A stretch of 24,475 nt of DNA from Oscillospiraceae bacterium (GTDB lineage: Bacteria; Bacillota; Clostridia; Oscillospirales; Acutalibacteraceae): positions 1-24,475 of the forward strand of contig JAVBSB010000052.1 of NCBI GenBank assembly GCA_031547365.1, given 5' to 3'. Below are positions 239-15,989 of the stretch, one piece after another (positions within the stretch are counted from its first letter, which is position 1; the number at the start of each line of letters is the position of its first letter). The position numbers were made by a program, and so were the translations under genes. A model generated the notes under the pieces. That model saw nothing but the letters and a program-made list of their open reading frames with translations. It was not told where the DNA came from and searched no databases.

Positions 239-358
239 TTTTTTAAGTTTTTCTGACTGGTACAAAAAAGGTATAATCATGTGATAAAATAAAACTATAA
301 GCGATATTCATGCACACGCTAAACGTTGCAAGCTCTTAAGAAATGTGAGGGAAGGTTT

Positions 359-1060
359 ATGCGCGATCATATCCTTATGGTGGAAGATGACGCACGTTTT
401 TGCGAACTGGTGAAGAATTATTTTGAGCAAAACGATATGGACGTTTGGTGCTGCGGCAGCATGGCGCAAGCGCGCGAACTGTACCAAAAAAGAAGATATG
501 ACCTGGTTTTGCTGGACGTGATGCTGGGCGCGGGCGCGAAGTATATGAACGACGGATTTGCGTTCTGCGATTGGCTGCGCCGCCGCGATTCGGATATTCC
601 CGTCATTTTTGTAACTGCGCGGGGAGACGAAAGCGATATTAAACGCGGATACCACTTCGGTTGCCACGATTACGTATGCAAACCTTATTCCGTGGAACTG
701 CTGATGCTGCGGGTGCGTACATTTATACAACTCACAAATGCGCAGCGCAAGCGAGGTAATTTATTAAAAAGCGGTGGTCTTGTTTTAAATTTGGACGCAG
801 TTACCTGTACGGCGGACGGACAGCCGCTGCGCCTGACGCCGAAGCAGTTCCGGCTGCTGCGGGTATTGATTGAAAACGAAAACCGGGTGCTTAGCCGCGA
901 GTTATTGCTGACCGAGGTTTGGAACTACGGCTACATAGAAGAAACGCGGGTGGTGGATAATCATATCTGCCGCCTGAAAAGGGCGTTGGGTAAACGCGCG
1001 GTTAACATCAAAACAAAGTCGGGCTACGGGTATTGGTATGAAGAGGAATATGCAGGGTAG
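359..1060 (+). CDS. OmpR/PhoB-family response regulator
   Basis: Receiver motifs MVEDD, LLDVML, FVTAR and KPY, plus winged-helix motifs LTPKQFRLL, SRELLLTEVW, VVDNHICRLK and GYGY. Start placed at ATG 359 (MRDHIL). Confidence 0.93.
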   Translation: MRDHILMVEDDARFCELVKNYFEQNDMDVWCCGSMAQARELYQKRRYDLVLLDVMLGAGAKYMNDGFAFCDWLRRRDSDIPVIFVTARGDESDIKRGYHFGCHDYVCKPYSVELLMLRVRTFIQLTNAQRKRGNLLKSGGLVLNLDAVTCTADGQPLRLTPKQFRLLRVLIENENRVLSRELLLTEVWNYGYIEETRVVDNHICRLKRALGKRAVNIKTKSGYGYWYEEEYAG

Positions 1061-1092
1061 CGATTGTTGCGTGCCTGCGGAGGGATGAAAAG

Positions 1093-2094
1093 ATGTTTGA
1101 TTCCACAAAAGTTGAGCTTGCTCTGGTTGCATTCATTGTGTTGTCAGCGGTCGCTTCGTTAATGGCGGTCATTTTTTTACAAGGCGCAGGAAAAAGCAAT
1201 CGCTTGAATAAGTCGCTCGGTAAAATTTTTCGCCTGCTTATTATGCAGCTGCTGGGCAGTCTTGTTTTTTACTGTATCCTTAGCGTCATAAGCTTTTTGG
1301 GAAATTATTCTCAAATATCCTACCAAACCTTTTTTTATGTGATCGCGGTTGTGGTCGCAATACTTTTTATTTTCGTTATTTTTTTGCTTGAAGTGATTGT
1401 ATCGCTGCATTATGACAGAAAAATATTCCGCAGGCAGCGCGATATGTTTCTACTTATAACGCATGAATTAAAAACACCGATGTCCATGCTGCGCATGCGC
1501 AGCGACCAGCTACTGCGCAACAGCAGCATGGCTTCAGCCGATTTGCAGAACGAAGTGAAATTGATGCAGGATGAGATCATTAAAATGAACCAGCGGCTGG
1601 CGGAGGTGCTGACTTATTCCCGGCTAAGCAACAGTAAGGTTCTGGAACGCACGGAATTCATGCTGGATGAAATGGTAGAAGACCTGGCAATGGATTACTT
1701 AGTACTGGCAGAGGATAAAAATGTGGCGCTGACGATTGATTTGCCCGAAGAATCGGCGGTTATATTTGCGGACCAGGTGCTGCTTCGTACAGCGGTCAGC
1801 AATTACCTCAGCAACGCTGTGAAATTCACTCCCGATGGCGGCGAAATCACCCTGCGCCTTTGCAAAGAAAAAGACATCAGAATTGAAGTGCGTAACACGG
1901 GCACCTTCATTTTCCCGCAGGATATCCAAAGGATCTGGGGTGAATTCATTCGCGTGGATCAACCGTATTCCTCTGTTAATGATACGGGGCTGGGTCTGCC
2001 CATTGTGCAGCGCATTGTTGATTTGCACAACGGCATTTGCGGTACGTTCAGCGACAGCCGCGGCACGGTGTTTTGGATCGAGCTGGGCGGTTAG
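1093..2094 (+). CDS. Membrane sensor histidine kinase (HisKA + HATPase_c)
   Basis: H-box THELKTPMS, N-box NYLSNAVKF, G2 TGLGLPIV, three N-terminal hydrophobic segments, RBS GGAGGG at 1079-1084. Confidence 0.92.
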   Translation: MFDSTKVELALVAFIVLSAVASLMAVIFLQGAGKSNRLNKSLGKIFRLLIMQLLGSLVFYCILSVISFLGNYSQISYQTFFYVIAVVVAILFIFVIFLLEVIVSLHYDRKIFRRQRDMFLLITHELKTPMSMLRMRSDQLLRNSSMASADLQNEVKLMQDEIIKMNQRLAEVLTYSRLSNSKVLERTEFMLDEMVEDLAMDYLVLAEDKNVALTIDLPEESAVIFADQVLLRTAVSNYLSNAVKFTPDGGEITLRLCKEKDIRIEVRNTGTFIFPQDIQRIWGEFIRVDQPYSSVNDTGLGLPIVQRIVDLHNGICGTFSDSRGTVFWIELGG

Positions 2095-2153: not shown

Positions 2154-2798
2154 TCAGCCAACTTCTATATATTCAATTGATTCATATTGCGAGGTAACTT
2201 TTTTTGCTTCGTCCAACAGCTGCTTGTTAAAAGAAAGCTCCTTATAGTCCATTTCGCCCTTCTTTTCGTTGTAGGCATCGGACCAGAGCTGTTCGCTCTT
2301 AAATTCGCCGTCTTTAATCGTCCAATAATAGCAGGAAAACGTGCTCATCCGGCCGCCTTCTACAAATATGCCGGGGAACGCTGTATTTGTAGAACGCCAG
2401 CTTTCATAATAAAACATATCAATTTTATGCCCCGCAATCGTCACCTTGCCGTTATATAAATATACATTGGCAAAAATGGAGCCGCCCTGAACATCGTCAT
2501 AATAAACCAAAATTAATTCGGGGGTTTTGTCGCCGTTCAGATCAGCCAAAAAATAATTGCCCGCATGATAAGGTTTTTCTTCGGCGTAATTGCTTGGATT
2601 TTTTAAGAAAGCATCATATGCGGCTTGCCATGGTCCGTTTGTCCATTCTGCGTTCACCGTGAGCTTTGTCTCTGCGGCGGTTTCGCTTATATCGGTTGAA
2701 GCAAATGCGTTGGTTTGCTCTGTTGCCACGCGATTGCAGCCTAAAAACAGCAACGCGATGATCAGTGCGAGCAAGAAAGCTATAGCTTTGGCTTTCAT
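2154..2798 (-). CDS. Hypothetical lipoprotein
   Basis: Signal peptide II MKAKAIAFLLALIIALLFLG-C, RBS AGAGG, and a DLNGDKTPEL Dx[DN]xDG-like Ca-binding loop. Confidence 0.8.
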   Translation of the reverse strand: MKAKAIAFLLALIIALLFLGCNRVATEQTNAFASTDISETAAETKLTVNAEWTNGPWQAAYDAFLKNPSNYAEEKPYHAGNYFLADLNGDKTPELILVYYDDVQGGSIFANVYLYNGKVTIAGHKIDMFYYESWRSTNTAFPGIFVEGGRMSTFSCYYWTIKDGEFKSEQLWSDAYNEKKGEMDYKELSFNKQLLDEAKKVTSQYESIEYIEVG

Positions 2799-2830
2799 TT
2801 ATATTCCTCTTTTCTCATGATACTGATTTT

Positions 2831-2859
2831 AGTATATAATATTCTGCTTTCTTTGTCAA
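2831..2859 (-). promoter_or_regulatory. SigA-type promoter for the lipoprotein gene
   Basis: TTGACA (2859-2854), 17 bp, TATACT (2836-2831). Confidence 0.8.
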
Positions 2860-2920
2860 GGCACAATCCCGGAGGTATTAATTGTTAAAAAAGCTGGATA
2901 CAAACGTATGGCACAGAACC

Positions 2921-2957
2921 AAAAGCGGCAAAGCTTGTTTTAGCCCTGCCGCTTTTT
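2921..2957. terminator. Bidirectional intrinsic terminator ending the sipW-srtB operon
   Basis: AAAAGCGGCA (2921-2930) / TGCCGCTTTT (2947-2956), just past the srtB stop codon. Confidence 0.75.
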
Positions 2958-2971
2958 GTGTTGTTATTATT

Positions 2972-3679
2972 TTATAAATTTATAATGCGTGCTGCCAGCA
3001 CGGTGCGTGCGCCGTCGAACTGGTAGGAGCAAGTGGACAGTAAAACGATTTGATCAGTCTGTGTCACTCCAATATCGCGGAACTGCTTTGCCTGCCGTTC
3101 CAGCGATTGCAGCAGCGCGCGCTGTTGTTCACCGCTGCGGGGCAGGGAATAGGTGACAGAGTCGGCGGCCTTGACCACGGCGCAGGCAAAAAACTCCAGC
3201 TTAAGCTTGCGGCTTGCCAGATATATCTCACCGGTCGGGTGTTGGTTGAAAAACTCTTCATCTCCAAAGCTGACAATCGCATGAAACATGCTGCCGTTGC
3301 GCATATTGTGACCGTATAAAATGGTGTTTTTTCCGCTGAAGTCGGGTGCGCAGCGGTAGTCCATAAAGATGGTGCCTGCCGTTGCGCTTTTACCGTGCAG
3401 GTCGTGGCGCAGATACGTCTCATTGTCGTTTGTCTGCACAAACGGGTACTCCACCTGTGTGCCGGAAATGCTCAGCCAGCCCACTACGTCTCGGTTCATC
3501 TCCTGCAGCTTTGTGACTTGCGGGTTTTCGCCCTGCGCATCCGAAGGCTTATAGCGCAACGCTTCTTCGTACATCTCGCTTTGCTGCTTATACGTTTCAT
3601 TGATGCGCCATAATTGCCAGCCGCTAACCGCAAGCACCGCAGTCAAAATCAGGGCGGCAACAACGCGCCAGGGCTTCAT
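2972..3679 (-). CDS. srtB: Class B sortase
   Basis: GWLSISGTQVEYPFVQ, GTIFMDYR, ILYGHNMRNGSMF, catalytic LSTCSY and RTVL. Start refined to ATG 3679 (RBS AAGGAG, ATGA overlap with the upstream stop). Confidence 0.92.
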   Translation of the reverse strand: MKPWRVVAALILTAVLAVSGWQLWRINETYKQQSEMYEEALRYKPSDAQGENPQVTKLQEMNRDVVGWLSISGTQVEYPFVQTNDNETYLRHDLHGKSATAGTIFMDYRCAPDFSGKNTILYGHNMRNGSMFHAIVSFGDEEFFNQHPTGEIYLASRKLKLEFFACAVVKAADSVTYSLPRSGEQQRALLQSLERQAKQFRDIGVTQTDQIVLLSTCSYQFDGARTVLAARIINL

Positions 3680-4983
3680 GCTTTGCTCCTTTTCTTCGGA
3701 TGCCAGAACAGCAGCGCGCGAAGACCTATCGCGCTGCATATCATCGCGCAGAACCATGGCAGGTAATTGCTCGGGTCGCCTGTCTTTGGGCTGCCGCCAA
3801 CTCCATTTGAGCCGCCATTTGCCGCCGCGGTTGTGCTGCGGGTCATTGTGGTTGCCGGAGTTGTTTCGGGATTTAGGGTGGTTTTGGCTTCCGTAGCAGT
3901 CAACGATACCGATTCTCTGGTTGTAGAGGTTGCGGACCGTGTAGTGCTTGTAATCGGCAGAGTTGTAGGTACGGTTGTAGTTGTGGATCGCGCTGTGGTG
4001 GTAGTAGGCGGTTCTGTACTAGTGGGCGGTTCCGTTGTCGTTTCGATTGGCGCTGTGGTTGTCTCTCCGGGATCTGTAGAGCTTTCGCCGGGATCTGTAG
4101 AGCTTTCGCCGGGAATCGTGGTCGTTTCCCCTGGGTCTGTCGTCGTTGGTTCCGGTTCGCTTGTAGTCGGCTCCGGCGCGGTGGTCGGCTCCGGTTTTTG
4201 ATATAAAGTATTGGTTATATATGTATTGATCACGCCGCCTGTGCCGGTACCGAACCCATTGTCTACGCTGACCGCATATCCTTCCGGTACAGGATTGGCT
4301 TCGCGCACGTCGTACTGTACGCCGAAGGGCAGGTTATAGGTTCGCGTTTCACCGTGCTTCAGCGTTATGGTTTCGCTGGCACCGTCCAGAATGACAACGA
4401 TTGCGAACGGTTTATTCAGATTGCCTGCGCCTGCCACAACCTTTCTTATCACCAGCTGTGCGGCGCCGTGCTGGTCCGGATAACCAAAGGTGTTTGTAAA
4501 AGCGGCGACTGTTCCGCCGGCAGGTATGTTGGCGTGATGGTTTGTGCTGCTGACCGTATAGCCCAGGCTGTCGGTTTCCACTAAGGTATATATTGTACCC
4601 TCGGGTAAGTTTTCAATAAGAGCGGCCTCGCCATGCTTAAGTTGGAATGTGCCGCCGCTGCTGATGTTGCTCACGGCTTCGCCGATCCGCAGGGGATATG
4701 ACGCAGTTGTATCAAATTCAATCCTATAGGTAAATGCAAGCTGTTGCTGTAGGAGCGTGAGCGGGCTGCCGTCGTCATTGATGACCGTATTTGTGACAAT
4801 CAGACCCTCAAAATCCTGCGGCGCAGCGGGGCTGTGTATGCCGGAGGCTGCGTTTGTGCGGTGCTGCCGCAAATCTGACCAGGCCATGGTTCCTGTGATA
4901 ACGGCAGAAAGTACAAAAATTGACGCCAGAATCGCTGCGCAAAGCTTTACTTTTAGACTGCGCGCGTTATTGCCTGTTGGCAT
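3676..4983 (-). CDS. Cell-wall-anchored protein with a SipW-type N-terminus, two beta-rich domains, a Thr/Pro/Glu-rich stalk and an SPKTG sorting signal
   Basis: N-terminus ...VITGTMA/WSDLRQHRTNAASG. C-terminus SPKTGD + hydrophobic stretch + PKKRSKA. ATG 4983 with RBS AGGAGG at 4992-4997. Confidence 0.85.
   Translation of the reverse strand: MPTGNNARSLKVKLCAAILASIFVLSAVITGTMAWSDLRQHRTNAASGIHSPAAPQDFEGLIVTNTVINDDGSPLTLLQQQLAFTYRIEFDTTASYPLRIGEAVSNISSGGTFQLKHGEAALIENLPEGTIYTLVETDSLGYTVSSTNHHANIPAGGTVAAFTNTFGYPDQHGAAQLVIRKVVAGAGNLNKPFAIVVILDGASETITLKHGETRTYNLPFGVQYDVREANPVPEGYAVSVDNGFGTGTGGVINTYITNTLYQKPEPTTAPEPTTSEPEPTTTDPGETTTIPGESSTDPGESSTDPGETTTAPIETTTEPPTSTEPPTTTTARSTTTTVPTTLPITSTTRSATSTTRESVSLTATEAKTTLNPETTPATTMTRSTTAAANGGSNGVGGSPKTGDPSNYLPWFCAMICSAIGLRALLFWHPKKRSKA
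4067..4114. repeat. Coding 21-bp tandem repeat (2 exact copies + partial) inside a 7-aa-periodic stalk
   Basis: CCGGGATCTGTAGAGCTTTCG at 4067-4087 and 4088-4108, encoding PGESSTD x2. Degenerate neighbours include PGETTTI, PGETTTA and EPTT. Confidence 0.9.
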
Positions 4984-5011
4984 GGGAACCACCTCCTGTC
5001 ATTGAAATCCG

Positions 5012-5037
5012 CCTGCGGGACAACGATGCCCCGCAGG
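5012..5037 (-). other. GC-rich intra-operon stem-loop without U-tract
   Basis: CCTGCGGG (5012-5019) / CCCGCAGG (5030-5037), directly after the stop of 5049..6032. Confidence 0.6.
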
Positions 5038-5048
5038 TCTTATTAATA

Positions 5049-6032
5049 TTAAGGCTGCGCCGGTGTGATACCGTATGCGGTCAGTACTTTCGCGGGCGCG
5101 CCGGTAAATGCAGCCGTGACGTCGGTGCTGTCTGCGGCGTCCATGTCAACGTGAACGGCGTAATAAAACGCGCCTGCGGGCGACTGAATGAGTGTGATTG
5201 ATTCCAGCAGCTTTGCGGTGGCTTCGCCGGGATTTAGCTCCTGCCCCCAATACGCCCAGCCCTCCGTACTGCTGTCGTCCAAAATCCATTTGGCAGCGGC
5301 TGTGCCGTCCCAATTGCTTAACTTTACAACCTGTGTCCCCAGCGCCCACTCCACATACTGGTGGAATGGGTCTGCCGCGGCGCTGTTCCAGCGGTGCGGC
5401 GTGTAGAGGCATTCGCCGGCGGCGTGGGCTGCGCGGTCGGGGTTATATGCTGCGCGCGTTACGCCGGGAACCAGAGAGGTTTTCGCGCCGGCAGCGGCAT
5501 AGCTGAGAATCATTTTTTTGCCATAGAGCCCGTTGTACCTTGTGTTTTCGTCGGTTGCATAATAGTAACGCGCCGCCGTATCATTGTAGGCTTTATATTG
5601 CTTGATCTGTGCGTCATTTATGATTAGCCGGGGGTAGTTTGCGGTCAGCCAGACCTTTAGGTTTGCTGCTGTATCCGCGGCTGCAAAGCTGCCGTCGCTG
5701 TGCACAAGCAGATACTCGCTCGTATAAGTGTAGTCCACCTGCGCGACATCCATAAACTCTTTCAGCTGCATACGGATAAACACTTTACCTTCGCCGCTGT
5801 TTTTGACCCAAACTTTTTTTGTCAGGGTTTCGTCGGTATTCCACTCGTCAGGCTGTTCATAATCTTCAATCAGCACAACATCCTGTAAGGCGGTGCTGCC
5901 GTCGCCCGTAGCAATATTGGTTTTGTGCTGGCTGTGGTCCTTCCATGCCCAGGTTCCGCCGAGGATGCTCAGCAGCGTGAAAAGCGCCGCAAAAAGAGCC
6001 AACGCTTTACGATGGGATGATATAAAACGCAT
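5049..6032 (-). CDS. BsaA/TasA-like SipW-dependent biofilm matrix/fibre subunit 2
   Basis: SipW-type signal ...ILGGTWA/WKDHSQHKTNIATG. KKVWVKNSG..VFIRMQLKE and GWAYWGQELNPGEATAKLLESITL blocks. Clear paralogue of 8505..10082. Confidence 0.8.
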   Translation of the reverse strand: MRFISSHRKALALFAALFTLLSILGGTWAWKDHSQHKTNIATGDGSTALQDVVLIEDYEQPDEWNTDETLTKKVWVKNSGEGKVFIRMQLKEFMDVAQVDYTYTSEYLLVHSDGSFAAADTAANLKVWLTANYPRLIINDAQIKQYKAYNDTAARYYYATDENTRYNGLYGKKMILSYAAAGAKTSLVPGVTRAAYNPDRAAHAAGECLYTPHRWNSAAADPFHQYVEWALGTQVVKLSNWDGTAAAKWILDDSSTEGWAYWGQELNPGEATAKLLESITLIQSPAGAFYYAVHVDMDAADSTDVTAAFTGAPAKVLTAYGITPAQP

Positions 6033-6068
6033 AATAAACTTCCTTCTTTCGCCAAAGGTAAAGAGCTT

Positions 6069-8432
6069 TTACGAGGCTATCTGCGTGCCGAGCAATTCGC
6101 TTTTTACCCATACGGCAACGCGGTAGGGTTTGCTCAGCGCGGGTGCGGCTGAACTGAGCGTACCGGCAGGCGTAGCTGAGCCGTCAACAAAAGCGACCTG
6201 TGTGTTGTTGTCCGTACGCAGCCAATAATTCTGTTTGGTTCCCAGCTTGCCGTAGTTCGCCAATGCTTTCGGGTTGGAGCTGGTCGTATTATACTTCGCG
6301 CTGCAAAAACGCGCCGCTTCGCCGTAACTGAGCGCAAAGCCGATGTCGTTCGTCGTTAAGCCGTTATTCAATACGCTGTTGGGTATGCTCAAATTAGCAG
6401 CAGAGCCATATGTGCCCATTTTGCTCATTGCGTTGTGGGTGACCAAATAACTGCGAATAGGGGAGTTTGAGGGCAAGGTGCTCTTCATAAAGGTATTGAC
6501 CGCTGTGCGCATTGCGCCGGAGGTATACCCGGTTGCCGTTGCGCCGGCATCGATTTGAGCTACGCGCAGCATCAAGCTGTAGCGCTGTTCGAAAATATCG
6601 GAGTAGGACGCGATTTCGATCCAGGCGGAGCTGTCCTTCGCTTCGGACGCGCTCAAAGTGCGGCCGGTACGGGGCGCGGGCGTGCCGAGGTTGTCCGGTT
6701 CCGGGTCCAGCGGCCAGGGGTTGAATACCGTTTTCACGCCGTTAACCAGCGGGATTTCGACTGTCATATTGTTAATGATATGCTTTGCATACGCGACCGT
6801 ATCAGTGGCTGCGATTGGATTTGGGGTAAATACCAGTTCGGTGGTCCCTACTGCTTCCCAAGTGCCGTCGCTCATCACGAACCAAAAATATAAGCCTTCC
6901 GGGTCAAATGGGGTGCCGTTAATTTGCTGAATCGCCTCGCCCGAAATTGCCAGTCTCACTGCGGTGGCAGGCGGCGGAGGCGCTACGCCGTTAGTCAGCG
7001 GAACGATTGTATACATACTGTTATAGAATACATAAACTTCCGTTGTATCCGCTGCAATTTTTGAGGGGAAAAAGCTGCAATCCGCAAGGTCCACCGGAAC
7101 CCGGCTGGAATCGCTCATTTCAAGGAAAAATTCAATGTTGGTGCCGATAAAGGACTTTCCGATGATTTGCTCTACAGCCGTACCCCAATGGTTAAAGCCG
7201 GTGACCGTCGGGGTTGGCGGGACGACAATGGGCGTGGTGCCTTCGATTTGCAGCTTGTATGCTACGGCGGCATAGACTGTATGGCTTATGCCCCATTTAT
7301 CGGTCACTTGACCGACAACACCGGTAAAGCCGGGTTGTGCGCCCTCCTTCGGCGTAATGCGGTTGCCCGATACGGTGATGAAGTCATCCTCTCCGCCGAC
7401 CGGAGCCCAGGCAATGGCACCTGTTCCGTTTAAGGCTGCGGAAATATCCGAGCCCTCTTCGTCCAGCAGCAGCATACCAAGATGCGGCAGACCAACGGTA
7501 TTGATGCCGTCCGGCTTCGCGACCTGATAGTTTGCGCGTCTTCCGTATTTACCTGTCAGTGTAGTGGAAATAATCTGCGTAATTCCGGGTGCGTTCCCGG
7601 TTACGTCAGCAGAGCCTGATGTTATCTTCAGGACGCTCGCGTGCTCGTTGTATGAGCTGATCCATCGAGCCTGTCCCGGCATTTTTTCCGTTACGGTGCT
7701 GCCCACGTCCAGCTGCTTATAGCTGGGGTTTGGATTTGTAAAGCTGTAGCACGTATTCCCTGCGGACAGGGAAAGCTCCGTGCCGCCGTCGTCTGCTTCA
7801 ACTCCATAGGCGACGGTAAAATAAATTGATTGTGTTATACCGTATTTATCCATAAATGTGCCGCGCGCGGCTGTTATGCCGGGCGTGGCATTTGTTTTCA
7901 CAGTAATTTGCTTTCCGGATACAGTGATAATATCATTGTCCCCGGCTTGTGGCTCCCATGTAATGCTTGACTCCAGCCCCGAAGGAACCGTTGTAACCGG
8001 AATTTCGGCTTCGGTGTCACTGAGTCCGATCGTTGTTGAGGCGCTGCTTAAAACGACAGACGATATTCCGTCTGCATTGTATATCTGATAGTTTGCGCGC
8101 CTGCCAATTTTTCCTGTCAAAGATGTGGAGATGATCTGTGCTACACCGGGGGAAATACCTGCAACCTCGGCAGTGCCGGAGGTCAGCTTCGTAGCTTGGG
8201 CAATTGCGGCGTTGGTACTGGTCCAATATCCCTGCCCGGGCATTTTTTCTGTTTCGGTGTCGCCAACGGCAAGTTGCTTATAGCTTGGGTTTGGATTGGC
8301 ACAATCGACTCGTACCGCAGGCGCAAGTTGAACAGCCAGGGTTGCGCTAACCAAAGCAATCACTGCCGAAACAGCGATTGCCGCAGCCACAACGATTGCA
8401 ATCAATCGTTTGTTCCGCTTATGCGTTTTCAT
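6069..8432 (-). CDS. Large exported repeat protein, putative adhesin (Ig-like repeats + DUF6273-like C-terminus)
   Basis: Basic + hydrophobic N-terminus ending VSATLA. Two ~187-aa repeats starting NPNPSYKQL (codons at 8297 and 7736), two ~70-aa repeats ending VPLTNGV / IPLVNGV, and C-terminal FALSYGEA...YWLRT...RVAVWV. Confidence 0.7.
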   Translation of the reverse strand: MKTHKRNKRLIAIVVAAAIAVSAVIALVSATLAVQLAPAVRVDCANPNPSYKQLAVGDTETEKMPGQGYWTSTNAAIAQATKLTSGTAEVAGISPGVAQIISTSLTGKIGRRANYQIYNADGISSVVLSSASTTIGLSDTEAEIPVTTVPSGLESSITWEPQAGDNDIITVSGKQITVKTNATPGITAARGTFMDKYGITQSIYFTVAYGVEADDGGTELSLSAGNTCYSFTNPNPSYKQLDVGSTVTEKMPGQARWISSYNEHASVLKITSGSADVTGNAPGITQIISTTLTGKYGRRANYQVAKPDGINTVGLPHLGMLLLDEEGSDISAALNGTGAIAWAPVGGEDDFITVSGNRITPKEGAQPGFTGVVGQVTDKWGISHTVYAAVAYKLQIEGTTPIVVPPTPTVTGFNHWGTAVEQIIGKSFIGTNIEFFLEMSDSSRVPVDLADCSFFPSKIAADTTEVYVFYNSMYTIVPLTNGVAPPPPATAVRLAISGEAIQQINGTPFDPEGLYFWFVMSDGTWEAVGTTELVFTPNPIAATDTVAYAKHIINNMTVEIPLVNGVKTVFNPWPLDPEPDNLGTPAPRTGRTLSASEAKDSSAWIEIASYSDIFEQRYSLMLRVAQIDAGATATGYTSGAMRTAVNTFMKSTLPSNSPIRSYLVTHNAMSKMGTYGSAANLSIPNSVLNNGLTTNDIGFALSYGEAARFCSAKYNTTSSNPKALANYGKLGTKQNYWLRTDNNTQVAFVDGSATPAGTLSSAAPALSKPYRVAVWVKSELLGTQIAS

Positions 8433-8467
8433 CAGGTTACCCCCTATAAAAAGTGAACAACCAGCCG

Positions 8468-8485
8468 GGGCGGCTTGCGCCGCCC
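8468..8485 (-). other. GC-rich intra-operon stem-loop with GNRA loop, no U-tract
   Basis: On the - strand: GGGCGGC-GCAA-GCCGCCC, 19 nt after the stop of 8505..10082. Confidence 0.6.
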
Positions 8486-8504
8486 GCAGCAGATTTTTCA
8501 GTTG

Positions 8505-10082
8505 TTATTTATACATGTTGATGACGGTGAAGTCAGCGGTTTTGCCGGAAACGGAATCGGTGAGCGTAATCACGACGGGGACCTCCAGTATCCAGCCTGT
8601 GCCGTCGACAAAGTTATCTTCATTTAAGAAATCAACCCAGCTCATTAAGCATTTGGAGATAATCTTGCCATTGCTGATATAAATATCCGAGCTGGTGTAG
8701 GCATAACCGCTGGGGCTCTGGATATTGGTAATTTGAATGTCTGTAAGATTGACGCCCTGTCCGGAGACGATGATGTTGCCAAGCGGGATTTCGATGTGTC
8801 CTATTGCGCTGAACAAAGCGGCTTCCTCGTAGTCCAGGGTCATTTCCCAGTCTTCTTCGTCCCAAGGCTCGAACGTATCGGGATCCTGTGTCTGTGCATT
8901 GAAGAAAATGCGATCGTTTGAAGTAGCAGGTCTGTAAGAGGTTGAAAGTAGGTTGAGCGCAAGGTCGCCTGTGCCGCCTGTGCTGGTGGCGGCTTTCAAT
9001 GCTGCCACAACTGTGGCGTTGTCTGTCGCCCAGCCATCCAGACCCGCAAAGTCAACCGCTTCCATATCCGCGTGTACTGCATAGTAGAAGTTGCCGTCGG
9101 GCTGTTTATCGAGCTTCATCGTCTTAAGTAAATTTTTTGTGCTTGCGCCCGGCAGAACCGCTGCGCCCCAATATGCCCAGGCGTCGGTTGTTGTTCTGTC
9201 GTCAAGAATCCACTTGTTAACGCTTTCGCCGCCGCCTGTAATCCAATCGGAATAAAGAATCACATCAGCGCCGAGCTGCCACGAAATATATTCGCGGAAC
9301 GCATCGGATACCCCGCCGGTTTTCCAAGTGTGGGCGGTGAACCCGCATTCGATGTCGGAGCCATTTTCGTGACCGTAATCTTTGTCGTTGATCAACGCGT
9401 GGTCAACTGCGGTTGTGCCGTCTACAGTGACAGCGGTTGCGCCGGCAGAACCGCCTGCGACGGGGAGTTTGCGGCCGTACTGACCGTTGGGATCGCCTGC
9501 TTTTGTGCGGACATAGTAGTACTCAACCGTGTCATTGATTCCCTGCGCCAAAACGAAGTCCGCAGCCGTTAATGCCTGGACATAATCGCTTGCGCTGCCG
9601 CCGTTAACAACGTTTGCCCACTGCGCGTCGTTTTTGATGGTGGTCAGGTTTGCGGGGACAGAGGGATCAAGCGTTGCCGCAAAGCGTACGAATAAGCCGT
9701 CTGTACGTTGAATCAAAAACAGAGAAGGCTTCGTTTGGCTGTTTTCAATAAAATAGTCATAGGAGACCGCAGTGATATCCATGTATTCTTTCAGCGAAAT
9801 GCGCGTATAGATGCTGACGTACTCGTCGTCGTCAAACTGTGAGGTTCCGCCGATATTTTCAACGCGGATCTCTTTGGTGACGGGCGGATCGGATGTTTTC
9901 CAGTTCTTCGAGTTCTCAAAGTTTTCTACCAGATTGGCCATTGCCAGGGTACCCTTGCCTTCGTTGTGACCGGTTGCCTGGTCAAATTTTACGAAAGCCG
10001 CGTATGTGCCGCTGACCAATATGGCCAGCACGATCAGGGCGGCCGCCGCTGCAGCCAGACGTTTCTTGGTTTTGCTTTGCAT
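8505..10082 (-). CDS. BsaA/TasA-like SipW-dependent biofilm matrix/fibre subunit 1 (with C-terminal extension)
   Basis: SipW-type signal ...ILVSGTYA/AFVKF. KEIRVENIG, YTRISLKEYMD, WAYWGAAVLPGASTKNLL and FYYAVHADMEAVD blocks. RBS AAGGAG. Lies immediately downstream of sipW. Confidence 0.82.
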   Translation of the reverse strand: MQSKTKKRLAAAAAALIVLAILVSGTYAAFVKFDQATGHNEGKGTLAMANLVENFENSKNWKTSDPPVTKEIRVENIGGTSQFDDDEYVSIYTRISLKEYMDITAVSYDYFIENSQTKPSLFLIQRTDGLFVRFAATLDPSVPANLTTIKNDAQWANVVNGGSASDYVQALTAADFVLAQGINDTVEYYYVRTKAGDPNGQYGRKLPVAGGSAGATAVTVDGTTAVDHALINDKDYGHENGSDIECGFTAHTWKTGGVSDAFREYISWQLGADVILYSDWITGGGESVNKWILDDRTTTDAWAYWGAAVLPGASTKNLLKTMKLDKQPDGNFYYAVHADMEAVDFAGLDGWATDNATVVAALKAATSTGGTGDLALNLLSTSYRPATSNDRIFFNAQTQDPDTFEPWDEEDWEMTLDYEEAALFSAIGHIEIPLGNIIVSGQGVNLTDIQITNIQSPSGYAYTSSDIYISNGKIISKCLMSWVDFLNEDNFVDGTGWILEVPVVITLTDSVSGKTADFTVINMYK

Positions 10083-10154
10083 GGTTTAACGCTCCTTTTT
10101 CTTTAAACATTGTTTCATTGTGTTATTTGTCTGTATTTAAACGGATTTACCCGG

Positions 10155-10892
10155 TTAAACGTTTTTGGTTCGTCTTGTTTTTTTCTCTTTCTTTTTTCTT
10201 GGCTTCCTTTCGCCTTCCTGCTTTTTTTCTTCCTTGCTTTTTCGCGGCTTACCTAAAGCAATGCGCAGGAAGAAAGACAGCGCCAGCAATCCGCCGAACC
10301 ACAGCAGTATCAGCAAGAGATGATCCTTTACGAACTGCAAAATGCTCCCAAGCAGGGGGATGGATAAAATGACTACGCCCAGCACATTGTCCGCGTGCGT
10401 GATATCCAGGTCCGGAGAAATGTTTTCGACGCCCTTTGTTTCAAAGCCGCGCTTGCCGTTTTCATCAAAGTTGCCCAGAATGCCGACTACCTTATGGGTT
10501 GTGGTTTTATTGCCGTTATTTGAAAAGAAGGTGATGTTTTGACCAAGCTTTATCAGGTTGGGGTCGGTTTTTTTGACCAGTACAAGCGAGCCCTTCGGGA
10601 TTTCGCGCTGCATACTGCCGGAAAGGACGTTAAAGACATAAAAACCGGCGATATCCCGTGCGCCTCTGTCCCCCGCGTTGGTAGCGCATATGACCGCGAC
10701 AAAGCAGGCAAGGACCAGCGCGACACAAAAGATGATGTTTGACACAGCCTTCCAAACGACCTTGCTCTTGCCTGTGCCTTTCGGTTCCGGCGGCGCGCTG
10801 TGGCATGCGCCGGACTCAAGCATAGTCAGCAGCTCGTCAACAAAAGCTTCATCTTCAAGGTATTCATCAATATATACCTCTGGCACCATCAT
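10155..10892 (-). CDS. sipW: Signal peptidase I, SipW (ER/archaeal type)
   Basis: NVLSGSM (catalytic Ser codon 10614-10616), TTTHKV (His codon 10494-10496), ETKG..N..D, two TM segments and a Lys-rich tail. Start moved to 10892 because the promoter at 10942-10970 lies inside the longer ORF call. Confidence 0.9.
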   Translation of the reverse strand: MMVPEVYIDEYLEDEAFVDELLTMLESGACHSAPPEPKGTGKSKVVWKAVSNIIFCVALVLACFVAVICATNAGDRGARDIAGFYVFNVLSGSMQREIPKGSLVLVKKTDPNLIKLGQNITFFSNNGNKTTTHKVVGILGNFDENGKRGFETKGVENISPDLDITHADNVLGVVILSIPLLGSILQFVKDHLLLILLWFGGLLALSFFLRIALGKPRKSKEEKKQEGERKPRKKKEKKTRRTKNV

Positions 10893-10941: not shown

Positions 10942-10970
10942 ATTGTAACGTGTGAATGTATAAATGTCAA
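10942..10970 (-). promoter_or_regulatory. SigA-type promoter of the sipW operon
   Basis: TTGACA (10970-10965), 17 bp, TACAAT (10947-10942). Confidence 0.8.
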
Positions 10971-11166: not shown

Positions 11167-14100
11167 TTATCCGTAGCAGGTACGATTGATAATAACTTTC
11201 TTTAAGTCGTCCGAAAGCTCGTTAAAATAGGCGCAGTAGCCCGCCACGCGCACCATCAGGTATTTATATTTTTCGGGGTGGTTATAGGCGTCGAGCAGCA
11301 GGTCGCGGCTGATGATATTGGGCTGGAATTGCATCCCGCCGGTGGTCAGAAAAGTCTTGAAGATTCCGCCGAGGTTCTTAACGCCCTGTTCGCCGGGGAA
11401 CAGCGCTGCGTCGATGGTGAACGTTGCGGTGGTACCGTTTACGGCGTAGTCGGTAAAGTTCACCTGCGCCAGCGCGTTAAGGGAGCTGAGCAGATCCGCC
11501 TTTTCCATGCCGTAGTGCGGCGCGACGCTGTTGGCCAAAGGCACGCCCTTACGCCTGCCGGAGGGCAGCGCCTGCGTCTTAATACCATATCGATCGCTGA
11601 CGTTGAGCGCGTAATAGCCTGCGGTGTATTGTCCGTTGCGCAGCGCATAGGGACACGCCTCAAGCGCTTCGTTATATATCTGCATCACGCGGCTGACCCA
11701 GCTTGCGGCGTCAATTGAGCTGTCATCGCCAAACTTGGGAACCGCCAATAAATCCTTGCGCAGCGATTGATGCGCTTCACCCTCAAAGTTCGCGTCGATC
11801 GCCTGTATCACCTGCAACAGACTGTATTTTTTCTGCTTGAACACCAGCTCGTCAATGGCATACAGCGAATCCGCAACGTCTGTCACGCCGACTGCCTGAA
11901 TGCCCGCGGTGTTGTATTTTGTGCCGCCCTCATATGCGTCCTTGCCGCTTTCCATGCAGCCCCGATACAGCGACGAAGCCAGCGGCGTTGTGTAGTATTC
12001 GCGCAGCGCCCTTTCGATGGTCTGCTGGTCGTCAAGAATGGATTTCGCAAGGGCGTTCAGCCGCGCCTTAAAGCGCGAGAGCAGCTCGGTCATGTCCTTC
12101 GGCGGGTTGTATTCATATAGCCCGCGCTTTCTGTTTCGTTTAACAATAGCTTTTTCGCGCCGTTCGGCAAGGTCGGGCTTCGCGAATTCGATTACGCGCG
12201 TGACCATTTTTTCTACCTGCAAGCCAAACCCGAAATTCCACAGGTCATGCTCATGCCCCTTCAGCGCCTGCAGCAGCGGCAGGGCAAGGTTCATATTGGC
12301 GCTGTCGGTGTTGCCAAAGTGGTCGTCGCTGGCAACAGGCTCCACGCAGCCAACGATGGAATAATTGCGCGCGTTTTCGATCGTAGTGTCATAGTGCTTT
12401 GTTAGGGTGTCAAAGTAGATGTTGTCGCTGAACAGCTCCGGCATTGGGCAGCCGTTGATGTATATTTCCGCAAGTCTGTCAAGGTAACGCGCGGGATTTT
12501 TTTCGTGGATGCGGGCGCACATATTGATGGCTAAGGGCTGCAGCTCGCAGGCGTCAATGCACATGTAGGTCACGTCGTTGACGGCGTCGTTGCCGTCTTT
12601 GTCTACGCCGCCGAAGGTCAGAGCCTGGTCGACGGAAAGCGTCTCAAACAGCTTACTGACGTTCAGCAGACCGTCGCCGTCGTTGACAAGTATTACTTCA
12701 TCCATCTTCAGCACAAACAGGCACAGCAGCTCTTTTGCTTCTTCATAGGTAATGCGCCCGGCCTCCAGGTCCCGCCTGAAGTATGGAAATAATATCTGGT
12801 CAATTCGGCCGAACGACACCGCGTTTTCATAAGCTTCGATGCACAGCGCAATCTGAAGAAACAGCATGCTCTGCAGCGCCTCGTGAAAGGTGCGCGCGGG
12901 GTGCTTTGGCACGCGGCGACAGATTGCTTCCATTTTTTCAAGCTCAGCCCTTCGCGTACGGTCGCTCTCGTTGACCGCCAGCGTGCGCAGCGCCTGCGCA
13001 TATCGCTCTGCCCAGATTTCCAGGGCGTCCAGCGCAATCAAAACGCCTCTGTAGAAATCCTGGTTATTTTCAGGGTGCGCCTTTGCCATGGCGCGGGCTT
13101 CTGCCTTCAGTCCCGTTGTACCCAGCTCCAATATGCGTTCAAAGTTAACGACATAGTGGGCAATGGCGGCAAAGTTATTGTTAAAGCCGGTGGAGGTTTC
13201 CGCAATGCGCGCCAGATTCAAAAAAAGCTTGCCGAAGCTGGTGTGTCCGCGCATGACGGTGCTTTTGTTGAGCCAGTAGGGAAAAATATGCTTGTAAAAA
13301 TAGCTGCGCTCCTCCTTCGTGGAGCTAAAGGCAACGGGTGTTTGCTTTGCTGCCTTGTAGAGAAAGGTGACATACAGCGTACCATATTGCTCCTCCCAGA
13401 TTTGCCCCGCAACACGCTTGCTTGTGAAGTTGCCGACCAGCAGCTCGCCGGGATAGACGATGGTTTTTTTTCGCCCCAGCACATAGTGCAGGCGCTGTGC
13501 GCGGTGAATTGCGACAGGCTTTTTGAAGCCGTCATATTTTTTATAGTACTCTGTCTTGAGCCTGGAAACTTCAAAGCAAATGGAGCGTTCGCTTTCGCGT
13601 ATGGCGCTCTGAATGTCCAGTACACGCTGCGTGAATTGTGCCTGCGGCGGATTTTCAGCAAGGTCGTCGTTGCGGGCGGAAACGCCGTATTGCCGGAACA
13701 GGTCAATTCCTTTTTTCAGCGAAAACAGGCTTTGCTCCGGCGTAATGTTCAGCTGCGGTATTTCCAGGTCCAGCCGCGCCGCTTTGCCCTCGTACATGTT
13801 GTGGTACTTCATCAGCTCAATTTGGTCAAAACCGAACGATTTGATATACTCTGCCGCAGCCTTAATCTGCGCTTCGCTGTCATTTAAGCCCGGCACCATC
13901 AGCATGCGTATCCTTAGATTCGCGCCCCGCGCAACGAGCTTTTCAAAATTGCCGTGTATGAGCTTGTCGTCCTTACCTGTCAAGTCCTTATGTACCTGCG
14001 CGCTGCCGACGAGCTTCAGGTCAACGAGAAAAAGATCAATATATGGCAGCAGCGCCTCTATGGTTTTCCACGGCGCACAAAGAGCGGTCTCTGCCGCTAT

Positions 14101-14430
14101 ATGGATGCCCTTGTCTTTTAGCAGAACCAACAATTCTTTCAGGCTGTCTTTGTCCTGCAAAAACGGTTCGCCGCCCGAGAGCGTAACGCCGCCCTGCGAT
14201 TGCGTATAGTATTTTTCATCTCGAAGCACCAATTCCGCAATCTCTTGCGCGGAGAGAATTTCATCACCCTCCTGCGGCAGGCGAGAAAGAATTTCGGGGT
14301 TTTGGCACCACTGACAACGCAGCGCACAACCTCTAAAAAATAGAGTCGTGCGCAGCCCGGGACCGTCGTGTACGCAGCTGCGTTGCACGCGGACGACATT
14401 AAGCCTTGTTTTTGTCTGAACCATTGGCAT
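11167..14430 (-). CDS. Fusion of glycyl-radical activating enzyme (radical SAM) and glycyl radical enzyme (PFL-like family, non-PFL)
   Basis: aa 1-~260: HDGPGLRT, CALRCQWC, GGVTLSGGEP. aa ~267-1087: GELLVGN, IVGCVEP (Cys695), RVAGY (Gly1064). One uninterrupted ORF with RBS AGGAGG at 14438-14443. Confidence 0.93.
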   Translation of the reverse strand: MPMVQTKTRLNVVRVQRSCVHDGPGLRTTLFFRGCALRCQWCQNPEILSRLPQEGDEILSAQEIAELVLRDEKYYTQSQGGVTLSGGEPFLQDKDSLKELLVLLKDKGIHIAAETALCAPWKTIEALLPYIDLFLVDLKLVGSAQVHKDLTGKDDKLIHGNFEKLVARGANLRIRMLMVPGLNDSEAQIKAAAEYIKSFGFDQIELMKYHNMYEGKAARLDLEIPQLNITPEQSLFSLKKGIDLFRQYGVSARNDDLAENPPQAQFTQRVLDIQSAIRESERSICFEVSRLKTEYYKKYDGFKKPVAIHRAQRLHYVLGRKKTIVYPGELLVGNFTSKRVAGQIWEEQYGTLYVTFLYKAAKQTPVAFSSTKEERSYFYKHIFPYWLNKSTVMRGHTSFGKLFLNLARIAETSTGFNNNFAAIAHYVVNFERILELGTTGLKAEARAMAKAHPENNQDFYRGVLIALDALEIWAERYAQALRTLAVNESDRTRRAELEKMEAICRRVPKHPARTFHEALQSMLFLQIALCIEAYENAVSFGRIDQILFPYFRRDLEAGRITYEEAKELLCLFVLKMDEVILVNDGDGLLNVSKLFETLSVDQALTFGGVDKDGNDAVNDVTYMCIDACELQPLAINMCARIHEKNPARYLDRLAEIYINGCPMPELFSDNIYFDTLTKHYDTTIENARNYSIVGCVEPVASDDHFGNTDSANMNLALPLLQALKGHEHDLWNFGFGLQVEKMVTRVIEFAKPDLAERREKAIVKRNRKRGLYEYNPPKDMTELLSRFKARLNALAKSILDDQQTIERALREYYTTPLASSLYRGCMESGKDAYEGGTKYNTAGIQAVGVTDVADSLYAIDELVFKQKKYSLLQVIQAIDANFEGEAHQSLRKDLLAVPKFGDDSSIDAASWVSRVMQIYNEALEACPYALRNGQYTAGYYALNVSDRYGIKTQALPSGRRKGVPLANSVAPHYGMEKADLLSSLNALAQVNFTDYAVNGTTATFTIDAALFPGEQGVKNLGGIFKTFLTTGGMQFQPNIISRDLLLDAYNHPEKYKYLMVRVAGYCAYFNELSDDLKKVIINRTCYG

Positions 14431-14608: not shown

Positions 14609-15295
14609 GTGTCAATGAAGGATGACTATCTGCCAAATGAAAAATATCGCAATATGTTCGGAGTAGAGCGCAACGGTTATGGTTGTGAGCGTGTAGACCT
14701 TTATCTTGCGCAGCTGGAAGTTGCGTTTAAAAAAATTCGCGAGGATAACCGCAACCTCAAGCGTGAGCTGACAGAGCAAAGCCCTGCGTATACAGGGGCA
14801 GCCTCCCCGCGCGAGGGCGAGTTGATTGCGCAATTGGAGCAGCAGGGGCAGTACATAATGCAGCTGCAGGCGCAGCTGGCGGAACAGCAGGAGTATAGCC
14901 GCCAGATGACAGGGACGCTCGATATTAACGCAGATAATCCTAACGACGCGCTGCTTGTGCAAATAGAGGCCTTGCGCGGCGAGGCAGACGCATTGCGGCA
15001 GCAATTGCGCCGCCAGGCAACCGGCGCGCCGGCGGTAAACGAAGAGGAACAACAAAATATGATCGGCAAAGTGCTGGTCGAAGCGCGCTCGCAAGCGGAA
15101 GAAACCTTGCGCAACGCAAGGCAGGAGTCCGACGCTATGATGCGCAAAGCCCGCCAAAAGGTGGAGGAGCTGCGCAGCGAACAAGAACGCGTCCAGAGCC
15201 AGCTGCAGGCAATATCTTACGGTTTGCGCAACGTTTTGCGTGGTACTGCGGGTGCGGAATATCAACAGCGGGGTGAAGATTTTGCGGCATCTTGA
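14609..15295 (+). CDS. DivIVA-domain coiled-coil protein
   Basis: N-terminal FGVERNGYGCERVDLYLAQL matches the DivIVA F..RGY..EVD.FL motif. C-terminal LVEARSQAEETLRNARQESDAMMRKARQ resembles the DivIVA C-terminal coil. GTG start with RBS AGAAAGG (ATG 14615 is an alternative). Confidence 0.75.
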   Translation: MSMKDDYLPNEKYRNMFGVERNGYGCERVDLYLAQLEVAFKKIREDNRNLKRELTEQSPAYTGAASPREGELIAQLEQQGQYIMQLQAQLAEQQEYSRQMTGTLDINADNPNDALLVQIEALRGEADALRQQLRRQATGAPAVNEEEQQNMIGKVLVEARSQAEETLRNARQESDAMMRKARQKVEELRSEQERVQSQLQAISYGLRNVLRGTAGAEYQQRGEDFAAS

Positions 15296-15989
15296 AAAGA
15301 AAACAACCGAGCTGTCTCCTGAAGCCAGAGCCTTTATAGACGAGGTCGATCAGCTGGCGGGCGAAGTGCTTGTCGCAGACAAAGAATTGGCTATGCCCAT
15401 CAGCCGAGAGCACGCAAAAAGAATGAAAACGCTGGCTAATGTTTTTTATGTTGTTGTAGTTGTGCTGGGCTTGCTGGTCGGGTTTGTACTGCTGCTCAAC
15501 CGTTACGCAAGCAACGGTATACTTGGTATGCGCTTTTTTGTGGAGCAGACCAACGCCATGAATACAACGGTGCCGCGCGGTTCACTGCTGGTCACCGTAA
15601 CGCGCTCGAGCGAAAAAATCAAGAAAAACGACATTATAACCTACTATGCCGTTCAGACGGATCCTGACACCCGCCTGACCCGTATCGTAGACGAGTGCTT
15701 AAAAACCAACGGCATTCCTTTCTTTCGCACAAGGCGCGCAGGCAGCGCGCAGCCGGACAGCATGCTGATCAATATGACGAACATTCTCGGCGTAAAGCTG
15801 GCAATCATACCTTATGCCGGTTATGTCATATCGTTTATACAGACCTATGCATACGGATTTGCGGTGCTGGCGGCCGCGATGTGCGTTGCTGCGATTGCGC
15901 TGCGCCGCTGGTCGTTTAAGGAACATCCCGAAATGAAAAAGAAGCGGAAAAAGAAGAACAAAGGAAAGGTGCGTCATGCGGACGTATAA
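15282..15989 (+). CDS. SipW-like (peptidase S26) protein, probably catalytically inactive
   Basis: Co-linear with SipW: VPRGSLL, IKKNDIITY, NILGV, IPYAGYVISF, two TMs and a Lys-rich tail. SGSM is TNAM and THK/RV is LTRIV. TTG start at 15282 with RBS GGGGTG. Confidence 0.75.
   Translation: MRHLEKKTTELSPEARAFIDEVDQLAGEVLVADKELAMPISREHAKRMKTLANVFYVVVVVLGLLVGFVLLLNRYASNGILGMRFFVEQTNAMNTTVPRGSLLVTVTRSSEKIKKNDIITYYAVQTDPDTRLTRIVDECLKTNGIPFFRTRRAGSAQPDSMLINMTNILGVKLAIIPYAGYVISFIQTYAYGFAVLAAAMCVAAIALRRWSFKEHPEMKKKRKKKNKGKVRHADV

Follow-up and report, generated by a model that had tools for sequence, protein, structure and literature searches.

Organization of the operon

This study concerns a 24,475-nucleotide (nt) stretch of DNA from an Oscillospiraceae bacterium (NCBI GenBank assembly GCA_031547365.1, contig JAVBSB010000052.1, positions 1 to 24,475), which is referred to as the window, and a candidate surface-fibre operon within it. 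The operon comprises six genes, all on the minus strand, which span positions 2972-10892 as defined by the open reading frame (ORF) listing and by profile scans. The order along transcription is sipW, P2, P3, P4, P5 and srtB, where P2, P3, P4 and P5 are the four exported proteins. The features, in the direction of transcription, are as follows:

10942-10970, minus strand: promoter-like site TTGACA-17-TACAAT, with 11 of 12 consensus matches; the ATG of sipW (10892) follows about 50 nt downstream
10155-10892, minus strand: sipW, an archaeal/endoplasmic reticulum (ER)-type signal peptidase I (TIGR02228, E = 2.2e-23, 82.9 bits, above the cut-off of 51.85)
8505-10082, minus strand: P2, a BsaA-like subunit of 525 amino acids (aa) with a C-terminal extension of ~175 aa (TIGR04090, E = 1.6e-8, 34.6 bits)
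6069-8432, minus strand: P3, an exported modular protein of 787 aa with immunoglobulin (Ig)/Big_2-like repeats and a DUF6273-type C-terminal module
5049-6032, minus strand: P4, a BsaA-like subunit of 327 aa with the full N39-E56-K72 triad (TIGR04090, E = 3.5e-13, 49.9 bits)
5904-5945, minus strand: predicted donor-strand segment of P4, residues 30-43, WKDHSQHKTNIATG, which includes the lock residue Asn39; in the alignment it coincides with the donor strand, and its Asn with the Asn, of true TIGR04090 proteins
3676-4992, minus strand: P5, the putative anchor or tether, 438 aa, with a SipW-type leader, donor-type strand, two DUF7601 Ig domains, stalk and SPKTG signal (PF24547, E = 4e-23)
4840-4881, minus strand: donor-type segment of P5, residues 38-51, WSDLRQHRTNAASG, which includes Asn47, from alignment with the P4 strand
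3679-3792, minus strand: cell-wall sorting signal of P5, read from the sequence as SPKTG, a hydrophobic segment and KKRSKA; SPKTG is a substrate motif of Clostridioides difficile SrtB (PMC4155245)
2972-3679, minus strand: srtB, a class B sortase (TIGR03064, E = 2.1e-56, 190.9 bits, above the cut-off of 153.75)
about 2917-2956, minus strand: intrinsic terminator hairpin of 15 bp with a U-tract, directly after the srtB stop

The intergenic gaps are 36-72 nt, apart from P5 and srtB, which overlap. The terminator hairpin, which was missed by the automatic scan, has a folding free energy of -26.5 kcal/mol (z = -5.46), and none of 200 shuffled sequences folds as well. Promoter-like sites across the whole scan were no commoner than in shuffled sequence; the operon promoter is assigned from its position and the quality of the match. 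The layout described in an earlier, sequence-only reading of this DNA, namely one promoter, six co-oriented genes and one terminator, was thus confirmed by the promoter-like site, the six minus-strand genes and the strong hairpin.

It could be argued that the six genes are merely co-located and that their products, namely a pair of unrelated matrix proteins, one adhesin, and a housekeeping sortase and one of its substrates, do not make up a single appendage. This would suit srtB, which is probably a general sortase and whose adjacency to the operon varies between loci. It does not suit the tight gene spacing, the one promoter-like site and the one terminator, nor the recurrence of the order sipW, BsaA-like, P3-like and anchor gene in many loci from several genera, nor the natural fusion of P2-type and P3-type modules described below. 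Mere co-location is consequently considered highly improbable.

The signal peptidase and the exported leaders

The catalytic residues of SipW are retained, with the Ser in SGSM and the His in TTHK, and both are conserved with orthologues, indicating from sequence that the peptidase is of the active type. The protein is not an equivalog of Bacillus SipW: it scores 75.6 bits against NF046067, for which the cut-off is 190. A third SipW-type peptidase, again with Ser and His intact (TIGR02228, E = 2e-18), is encoded on contig C184 of the same genome at 430-1176 (locus L003) and is followed by a 597-aa exported protein that lacks a G-T-x-A/QHKTN leader.

The leaders of P2, P3, P4 and P5 end in VSGTYA, VSATLA, GGTWA and TGTMA, respectively, and the sorting signal is confined to P5. 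Both statements can be read directly from the sequence and agree with what had been noted previously. The TIGR04088 profile, which describes the SipW-cognate signal, was absent among the NCBIfam matches of the operon proteins at E <= 0.1.

Family and fold of the BsaA-like proteins

P2 and P4 are paralogues that share 33% identity (E = 4e-42). Among 74 aligned relatives of P4, TIGR04090 is matched by 70 at E <= 1e-3, with 1.3e-18 as the best value. PF12389, which stands for the camelysin/TasA family (fold of PDB 8aur and 5OF1), is matched by 13 of the relatives and not by P4 itself. In addition, the G-T-x-A leader of the SipW type and the co-located sipW gene are features of the BsaA family. 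The P4 group is a divergent subfamily, judged by sequence, and not an equivalog. As P2 and P4 stay below the TIGR04090 cut-off, they cannot be counted with confidence in that family proper, while membership of both in the BsaA/TasA superfamily is well supported. The sequence-only reading had named three profiles by which the system might be recognized, those for TIGR04088, BsaA and TasA/CalY. The second was found, at scores below the cut-off, and the third was found in relatives in the form of PF12389, whereas the first was not returned.

The AlphaFold2 monomer of P4 is a beta-sandwich with insertions (predicted local distance difference test (pLDDT) score, 89.4), in which residues 27-41 are the sole disordered part. 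When this model was compared to clusters of the AlphaFold Database (AFDB), it matched "alternate signal-mediated exported protein" (E = 3e-10, probability 1.0) and camelysin clusters (E = 3e-5 and 5e-4, probability 1.0 and 0.96). The top row of the Atlas was also of the "alternate signal-mediated exported protein" type, with template modeling scores of 0.49/0.54. The fold link between P4 and TasA/camelysin comes solely from these two sources: Foldseek found no significant match to P4 in the PDB or among the Swiss-Prot models, VIA-align against the PDB returned generic Ig-fold matches only, and a profile search of PDB sequences gave nothing meaningful.

Taken together, the family matches and the gene set support the earlier proposal of a SipW-type, BsaA/TasA-family fibre operon.

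The donor strand and the lock triad

In the Clostridium perfringens BsaA monomer, residues 28-38 are disordered and insert into the next subunit (PMC11580942). In that protein, N35 and K74 then form an isopeptide bond in a reaction catalysed by E56, and mutation of these residues abolishes the heat-stable oligomers (PMC11580942). The corresponding elements are present in P4. Its disordered segment and the spacing of its triad match those of BsaA, and the Asn and Lys of the P4 family share their alignment columns with the Asn and Lys of true TIGR04090 proteins that other genomes supplied. Conservation is 90% or more at each of N39, E56 and K72, and all three are present in 65 of the 74 aligned sequences. 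At the sequence level, P4 therefore has what defines exchange and lock in BsaA: an Asn in the predicted donor strand, and a Glu and a Lys that lie within the first two strands of the core.

As the triad is kept in 65/74 family members, P4 included, the fibre is probably covalently locked. The sequence-only reading had proposed a non-covalently polymerised fibre, which is now unlikely given the conservation of the BsaA N-E-K triad (PMC11580942).

The triad columns of P2 differ and read G-E-K, that is, the acceptor Glu and Lys are present and the donor Asn is replaced by Gly. More generally, P2-type subunits keep the acceptor Glu and carry Gly at the position of the donor Asn, and the sequence that follows the cleavage site is DQATG. 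The Lys is kept in P2 and also in a P2-type fusion protein from locus L006.

P5 carries a donor-type strand and a sorting signal

P5 is built differently from the subunits. Its leader is followed by the donor-type strand, two DUF7601 domains and a Pro/Thr-rich, low-complexity stalk of ~135 aa that precedes the sorting signal, and it is without an acceptor (BsaA) domain. When P5 residues 20-51 were compared by BLASTP to P4 residues 12-43, they were 47% identical, and nothing else is common to the two proteins.

This architecture recurs. In the 12 complete loci that bear an anchor gene (the window, L006, L007, L045, L049, L050, L051, L052, L054, L055, L056 and L061), the anchor consists of a donor-type strand and an xPxTG signal with no BsaA body. 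In three more (L046, L057 and L060), such a protein is cut by the contig end. The anchors range from 193 to 1085 aa in length and the lock Asn is kept in 14 of the 15. At their variable positions, anchor strands are more like the strand of the subunit from their own locus than in shuffled pairings (0.51 versus 0.45 +/- 0.02, p ~0.003, without correction for phylogeny). Five of them (L045, L050, L051, L054 and L055; 193-283 aa) consist only of the leader, the strand, a Pro/Thr stalk and the xPxTG signal, and a Pfam scan of two of these five gave no domain match. From their sequences, such minimal anchors can be neither pilins nor adhesins, and the conserved functional parts would be the strand and the wall anchor. 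The proposal that the sortase substrate acts as a wall tether is accordingly likely, with an N-terminus that copies the donor strand of the subunits in all 12 complete loci.

The position of the anchor gene in the operon is not fixed, because in three of these loci (L050:8320-8934, L051:9423-10004 and L054:9812-10486) the gene for the minimal tether lies directly after sipW and before the subunit genes.

The block shared by P4 and P5, which contains QHKTN, is not simply a requirement for processing by SipW, since P3-type and P2-type proteins have SipW leaders and lack it. In P3-type proteins, for example, the sequence after the cleavage site is instead A-K-P-D-V-x-V-T-L. The view that the shared motif reflects SipW recognition only was down-weighted for this reason.

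FCT and PI-2 islands of streptococci pair a signal-peptidase-like protein, SipA, with class B-like sortases. The operon could be read as such a classical, sortase-polymerised pilus locus, with P5 as the pilin, a SipA-like peptidase and the BsaA-like proteins as a separate matrix. Here, too, a signal-peptidase homologue, a class B-type sortase adjoining P5 and an FctA-like Ig-domain sortase substrate occur in one locus, and the DUF7601 domains of P5 weakly resemble the pilin domains of FctA, Cpa, T-antigen and PitB (E = 4e-4 to 0.035). In contrast to those pili, the polymerising subunits of the present operon have no sorting signals, and one sortase was detected in the genome and one substrate in the operon. 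The SipW is of the ER/archaeal type and keeps its catalytic Ser and His, whereas SipA is of the LepB type and non-catalytic. A long stalk like that of P5 is usual in anchored proteins that span the wall, unlike in pilins; most of the orthologous loci are without the sortase; and some orthologous anchors, those of 193-283 aa, have no Ig domain. A pilus of the FCT type was rejected because orthologous tethers lack any folded domain; its probability is very low.

SrtB is probably a general sortase

The srtB gene starts with the ATG at 3679, which overlaps the TGA of P5 as ATGA, and an AAGGAG ribosome-binding site lies upstream; judged from the sequence, srtB is translationally coupled to P5. Its translation shows the YGHNM, LSTC and GAR motifs that hold the catalytic His, Cys and Arg of class B sortases. 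These motifs, the score above the cut-off and the adjacent SPKTG substrate, P5, all agree with membership in class B. C. difficile has a single SrtB, which recognises SPKTG and PPKTG (PMC4155245).

In the sequence-only reading, the operon was credited with its own sortase, and this was overstated. SrtB is the sole sortase detected in the recovered genome, which is 69% complete, and srtB adjoins the anchor gene in only four of the 12 complete anchor-bearing loci. Furthermore, contig C167 of the same genome encodes two surface proteins in tandem, whose leaders are of the ordinary Sec type and whose sorting signals are YPKTG (2640-3458 and 3647-4930, minus strand). Apart from these two and P5, no sortase substrate was found in the genome, and the operon SrtB presumably handles these two as well. 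Because a single sortase was detected, because the genome contains other xPKTG substrates and because the adjacency varies, a dedicated enzyme was rejected: SrtB is probably the general sortase of the cell, co-located with and coupled to its substrate at this locus.

P3 and the proposed distal side

P3 itself has no significant match in Pfam or the PDB, and it was assigned by way of its orthologues and leads from the Atlas. The orthologues match DUF6273 and Big_2 above the cut-off, with FIVAR just below, and the Atlas leads point to Big_2 and DUF6273. P3 is thus a putative adhesin.

A natural fusion connects P3 to P2. At L006:7958-9988, a 676-aa protein joins a P2-type, BsaA-like domain that is 61% identical to P2 to a P3-type C-terminal module. 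The C-terminus of this fusion is 46% identical to the C-terminal 300 aa of P3 (E = 1e-65). As both modules are joined in one protein, P2 and P3 are likely to be functionally linked. Together with the G-E-K reading of the triad columns, this fusion suggests that P2 is probably a distal or tip-side adaptor and not a second shaft subunit. The earlier picture of two shaft paralogues and an adhesin is thereby retained in part: P2 and P4 are paralogous and P4 is likely to form the shaft, but P2, which is without the donor Asn and is fused to the P3 module in a relative, is doubtful in that role.

A model for fibre assembly

We propose, at a probability of roughly 60%, that the operon builds a cell-wall-tethered surface fibre of the BsaA/TasA type. 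In the model, SipW would cleave the G-T-x-A leaders of P2, P3, P4 and P5. By analogy to C. perfringens BsaA, cleavage would expose the disordered N-terminal strand of P4 (WKDHSQHKTN...), which would insert into the beta-sandwich of its neighbour by donor-strand exchange. The inserted strand would then be locked by a spontaneous isopeptide bond between the donor Asn39 and the acceptor Lys72, with Glu56 as catalyst, again as in BsaA.

P5 has the same strand and Asn and no acceptor, so it could be accommodated only at the end of the chain where a groove is free, and this is where it is placed. SrtB would link the C-terminus of P5 to peptidoglycan via SPKTG, with the Pro/Thr stalk spanning the wall. 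P5 would thereby be the basal tether, acting either as an initiator, like TapA, or as a terminator, like ElrB or PapH; the present data fit either role. P2 would accept and lock a strand and, since its own strand lacks the Asn, would be the distal subunit, with P3 as the associated adhesin module. The most economical order is therefore proposed to be wall, P5, P4 repeated, P2 and P3, which is the reverse of the gene order. Should this proposal be right, covalent bonds would run unbroken from the wall as far as the distal BsaA-type subunit without a pilin-polymerising sortase.

A natural concatemer has a layout that mirrors the proposed tip-to-base order. It is encoded at L071:522-4745 (P0014, JGI 3300042601) and contains three BsaA-like domains, each followed by a donor-type strand of the form QH[KI]TN. 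No strand comes before the first domain, and the last strand is followed by Flg_new repeats, a Pro/Thr stalk and transmembrane segments. The domains of P0014 have lost the acceptor Glu and Lys.

Several observations weigh against this model. Neither P2 nor P4 reaches the 60-bit cut-off of TIGR04090, and the comparison of P4 to the TasA fibre (PDB 8aur) is weak and not distinctive, with a Foldseek E of 0.06 and a VIA Z of 5.2 over 125 residues at 14% identity. In the AlphaFold2 monomer of residues 421-980 of P0014, two domains are folded and the strands, at pLDDT < 50, are not inserted; the alignment is thin over the strands, and the Glu and Lys are lost in this protein. The anchor of L006 has Gly in place of the lock Asn. 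The BsaA oligomers of C. perfringens strain 13/HN13 do not require srtB and behave as membrane-anchored and not wall-anchored. The agreement between anchor strands and local subunit strands given above carries no correction for shared ancestry. Finally, the organism is uncultured, and the window is contig C144 of a 1.18-Mb metagenome-assembled genome (MAG), the one to which the figure of 69% completeness given above applies.

The behaviour of the HN13 oligomers, which are not wall-linked, also favours a different explanation, in which P5 is an independent surface protein, processed by SipW and anchored by SrtB, and is co-expressed with a matrix fibre that stays in the membrane or is released. 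In that case the shared motif would reflect SipW recognition or a duplicated leader, and SipW substrates do share an extended signal region, which is the concept behind TIGR04088. As noted, the QHKTN block is absent from P3-type and P2-type proteins with SipW leaders and is unneeded for processing. The block aligns instead with the experimentally defined donor strand and lock Asn of BsaA, and the strands of anchors and subunits co-vary within loci. The minimal tethers also speak against an independent P5: they comprise the block, a stalk and a sorting signal, and no other function is left for them. An independent P5 is consequently regarded as unlikely, and a P5 that tethers the fibre is preferred.

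Relationship to known systems

The C. perfringens bsa locus has the order sipW-bsaA-bsaB-bsaC with srtB adjacent (Obana 2020, PMC7395162; Kivimaki et al. 2024/25 preprint, PMC11580942). In the same species, most strains have an LPXTG-bearing bsaB-like gene, and anchoring of the fibre by SrtB has been proposed speculatively (PMC11580942). BsaA/TasA genes also often occur in putative operons with genes for LPxTG proteins, SpaA-domain proteins, signal peptidases and sortases (PMC11580942). The present operon is like bsa in its SipW-type peptidase, in its BsaA/TasA-family subunits, in the N-E-K-locked strand exchange that is predicted for it, and in the class B sortase that adjoins it. Unlike in bsa, the anchored protein is not a paralogue with the BsaA/BsaB fold. 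Instead, the putative tether has the donor-type strand alone, with the lock Asn in place, and consists otherwise of DUF7601 domains and a stalk, or in relatives of the stalk alone. The subunits, at ~300 aa and with insertions, are also larger and fail to reach the TIGR04090 cut-off, a BsaC with a von Willebrand factor A domain is absent, and srtB is co-oriented with and translationally coupled to its substrate.

In Bacillus subtilis, TapA donates its N-terminus to the first TasA subunit (PMC10151520), and the structure of the TasA fibre is known (PDB 8aur; PMC9674648). The tapA-sipW-tasA operon shares with the operon described here the SipW-processed subunits and the fibre built by N-terminal donor strands, along with an envelope-associated accessory protein, TapA. 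It differs in that TasA is without an isopeptide lock and TapA has a complete Ig fold and no sortase signal.

The closest parallel to the tether comes from an unrelated family. In the Elr (WxL) pilus of Enterococcus faecalis, ElrB is a donor-only base subunit with LPXTG (Sleutel et al. 2026, bioRxiv 10.64898/2026.10.17.759780). The likeness extends to the donor-strand fibre itself, to a small base subunit that lacks an acceptor, to wall retention that depends on sortase, and to a tip adhesin that is acceptor-only. The WxL family is, however, unrelated to BsaA/TasA; Elr needs a DUF916/DUF3324 membrane chaperone and no SipW, and no isopeptide lock is reported for it. The Pfam scan of the six operon proteins gave no match to WxL or to DUF916/DUF3324.

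The set-up of the operon had been assumed to be novel. Its general idea is already published, as the co-occurrence of BsaA/TasA genes with LPxTG, SpaA-domain and sortase genes and the anchoring by SrtB are discussed in PMC11580942, and the Elr pilus follows the same design. The novelty is lower than was assumed to that extent. What the present loci add is a putative class of donor-strand-only tethers for the BsaA/TasA family that keep the lock Asn, the minimal forms included. It is possible, although we would not call it probable, that these operons encode a distinct class of Gram-positive appendage, in which covalent linkage extends from peptidoglycan to the distal BsaA-type subunit with no polymerising sortase, a housekeeping class B sortase attaches a minimal donor-strand-only tether to the wall, and every junction, including that between the tether and the first subunit, is sealed by a spontaneous Asn-Lys isopeptide bond once the strand has been inserted. 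In such an appendage, the distribution of the donor Asn and of the acceptor Glu and Lys among the proteins would dictate the sequence of tether, shaft, adaptor and adhesin.

Distribution and other features of the window

The P4 subfamily comprises 891 representatives at 50% identity (E <= 1e-3), of which 103 are found at E <= 1e-30, and most come from metagenomes. Among reference genomes, P4 is present in 10 of 15 species of the same genus, the genome of the window being counted; of 21 further genera in the family, 3 have it. Searches in 25 other families of the order did not detect it, and an even sample of 400 genomes of the class, with up to five candidates scored per genome, gave no further match at E <= 1e-15. 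The relatives are almost all MAGs of uncultured Oscillospiraceae, and the names of isolates and samples suggest termite-gut metagenomes.

A second module is placed divergently in the window at 14609-17259 on the plus strand. It begins with a DivIVA-domain protein (PF05103, E = 7e-8) and includes a SipW paralogue that is without both catalytic residues, with TNAM for SGSM and DTRL for TTHK. It also encodes a 427-aa protein with an N-terminal transmembrane segment and distant similarity to P4 in a C-terminal block (E = 3e-4). From its sequence, this protein could be related to the fibre subunits, as a form that is fixed in the membrane and acts only as an acceptor.

According to the ORF listing, a 1087-aa ORF at 11167-14430 on the minus strand seemingly joins a radical-SAM activase-like N-terminus (CxxxCxxC) to a glycyl-radical-enzyme-like body that ends in RVAGYCAYF. 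On the other side of the operon, beyond the terminator and an intervening gene for a lipoprotein-like product (2154-2798), are an OmpR-type response regulator and a histidine kinase (326-2094, plus strand). Related loci carry LytTR regulators nearby instead, and no conserved regulator is evident.

Implications for fibre retention

These findings carry limited weight, since the general idea has already been published, the host has not been cultured and the key contact is an inference. Nevertheless, how TasA/BsaA fibres are retained on the cell is still an open question, as the attachment of TapA is undefined and C. perfringens strain 13 has apparently lost the LPXTG component. For one branch of the family, the present analysis suggests a simple answer, in which the tether is the insertion strand of the fibre itself, complete with the lock residue, joined to a sortase signal. 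The minimal tethers of 190-230 aa would be convenient reagents for following donor-strand capture and isopeptide locking in vitro, and the pair formed by strand and lock might serve as a self-ligating tag. Two unrelated families of Gram-positive fibres, WxL/Elr and BsaA/TasA, would then have arrived at the same solution for anchoring the base.

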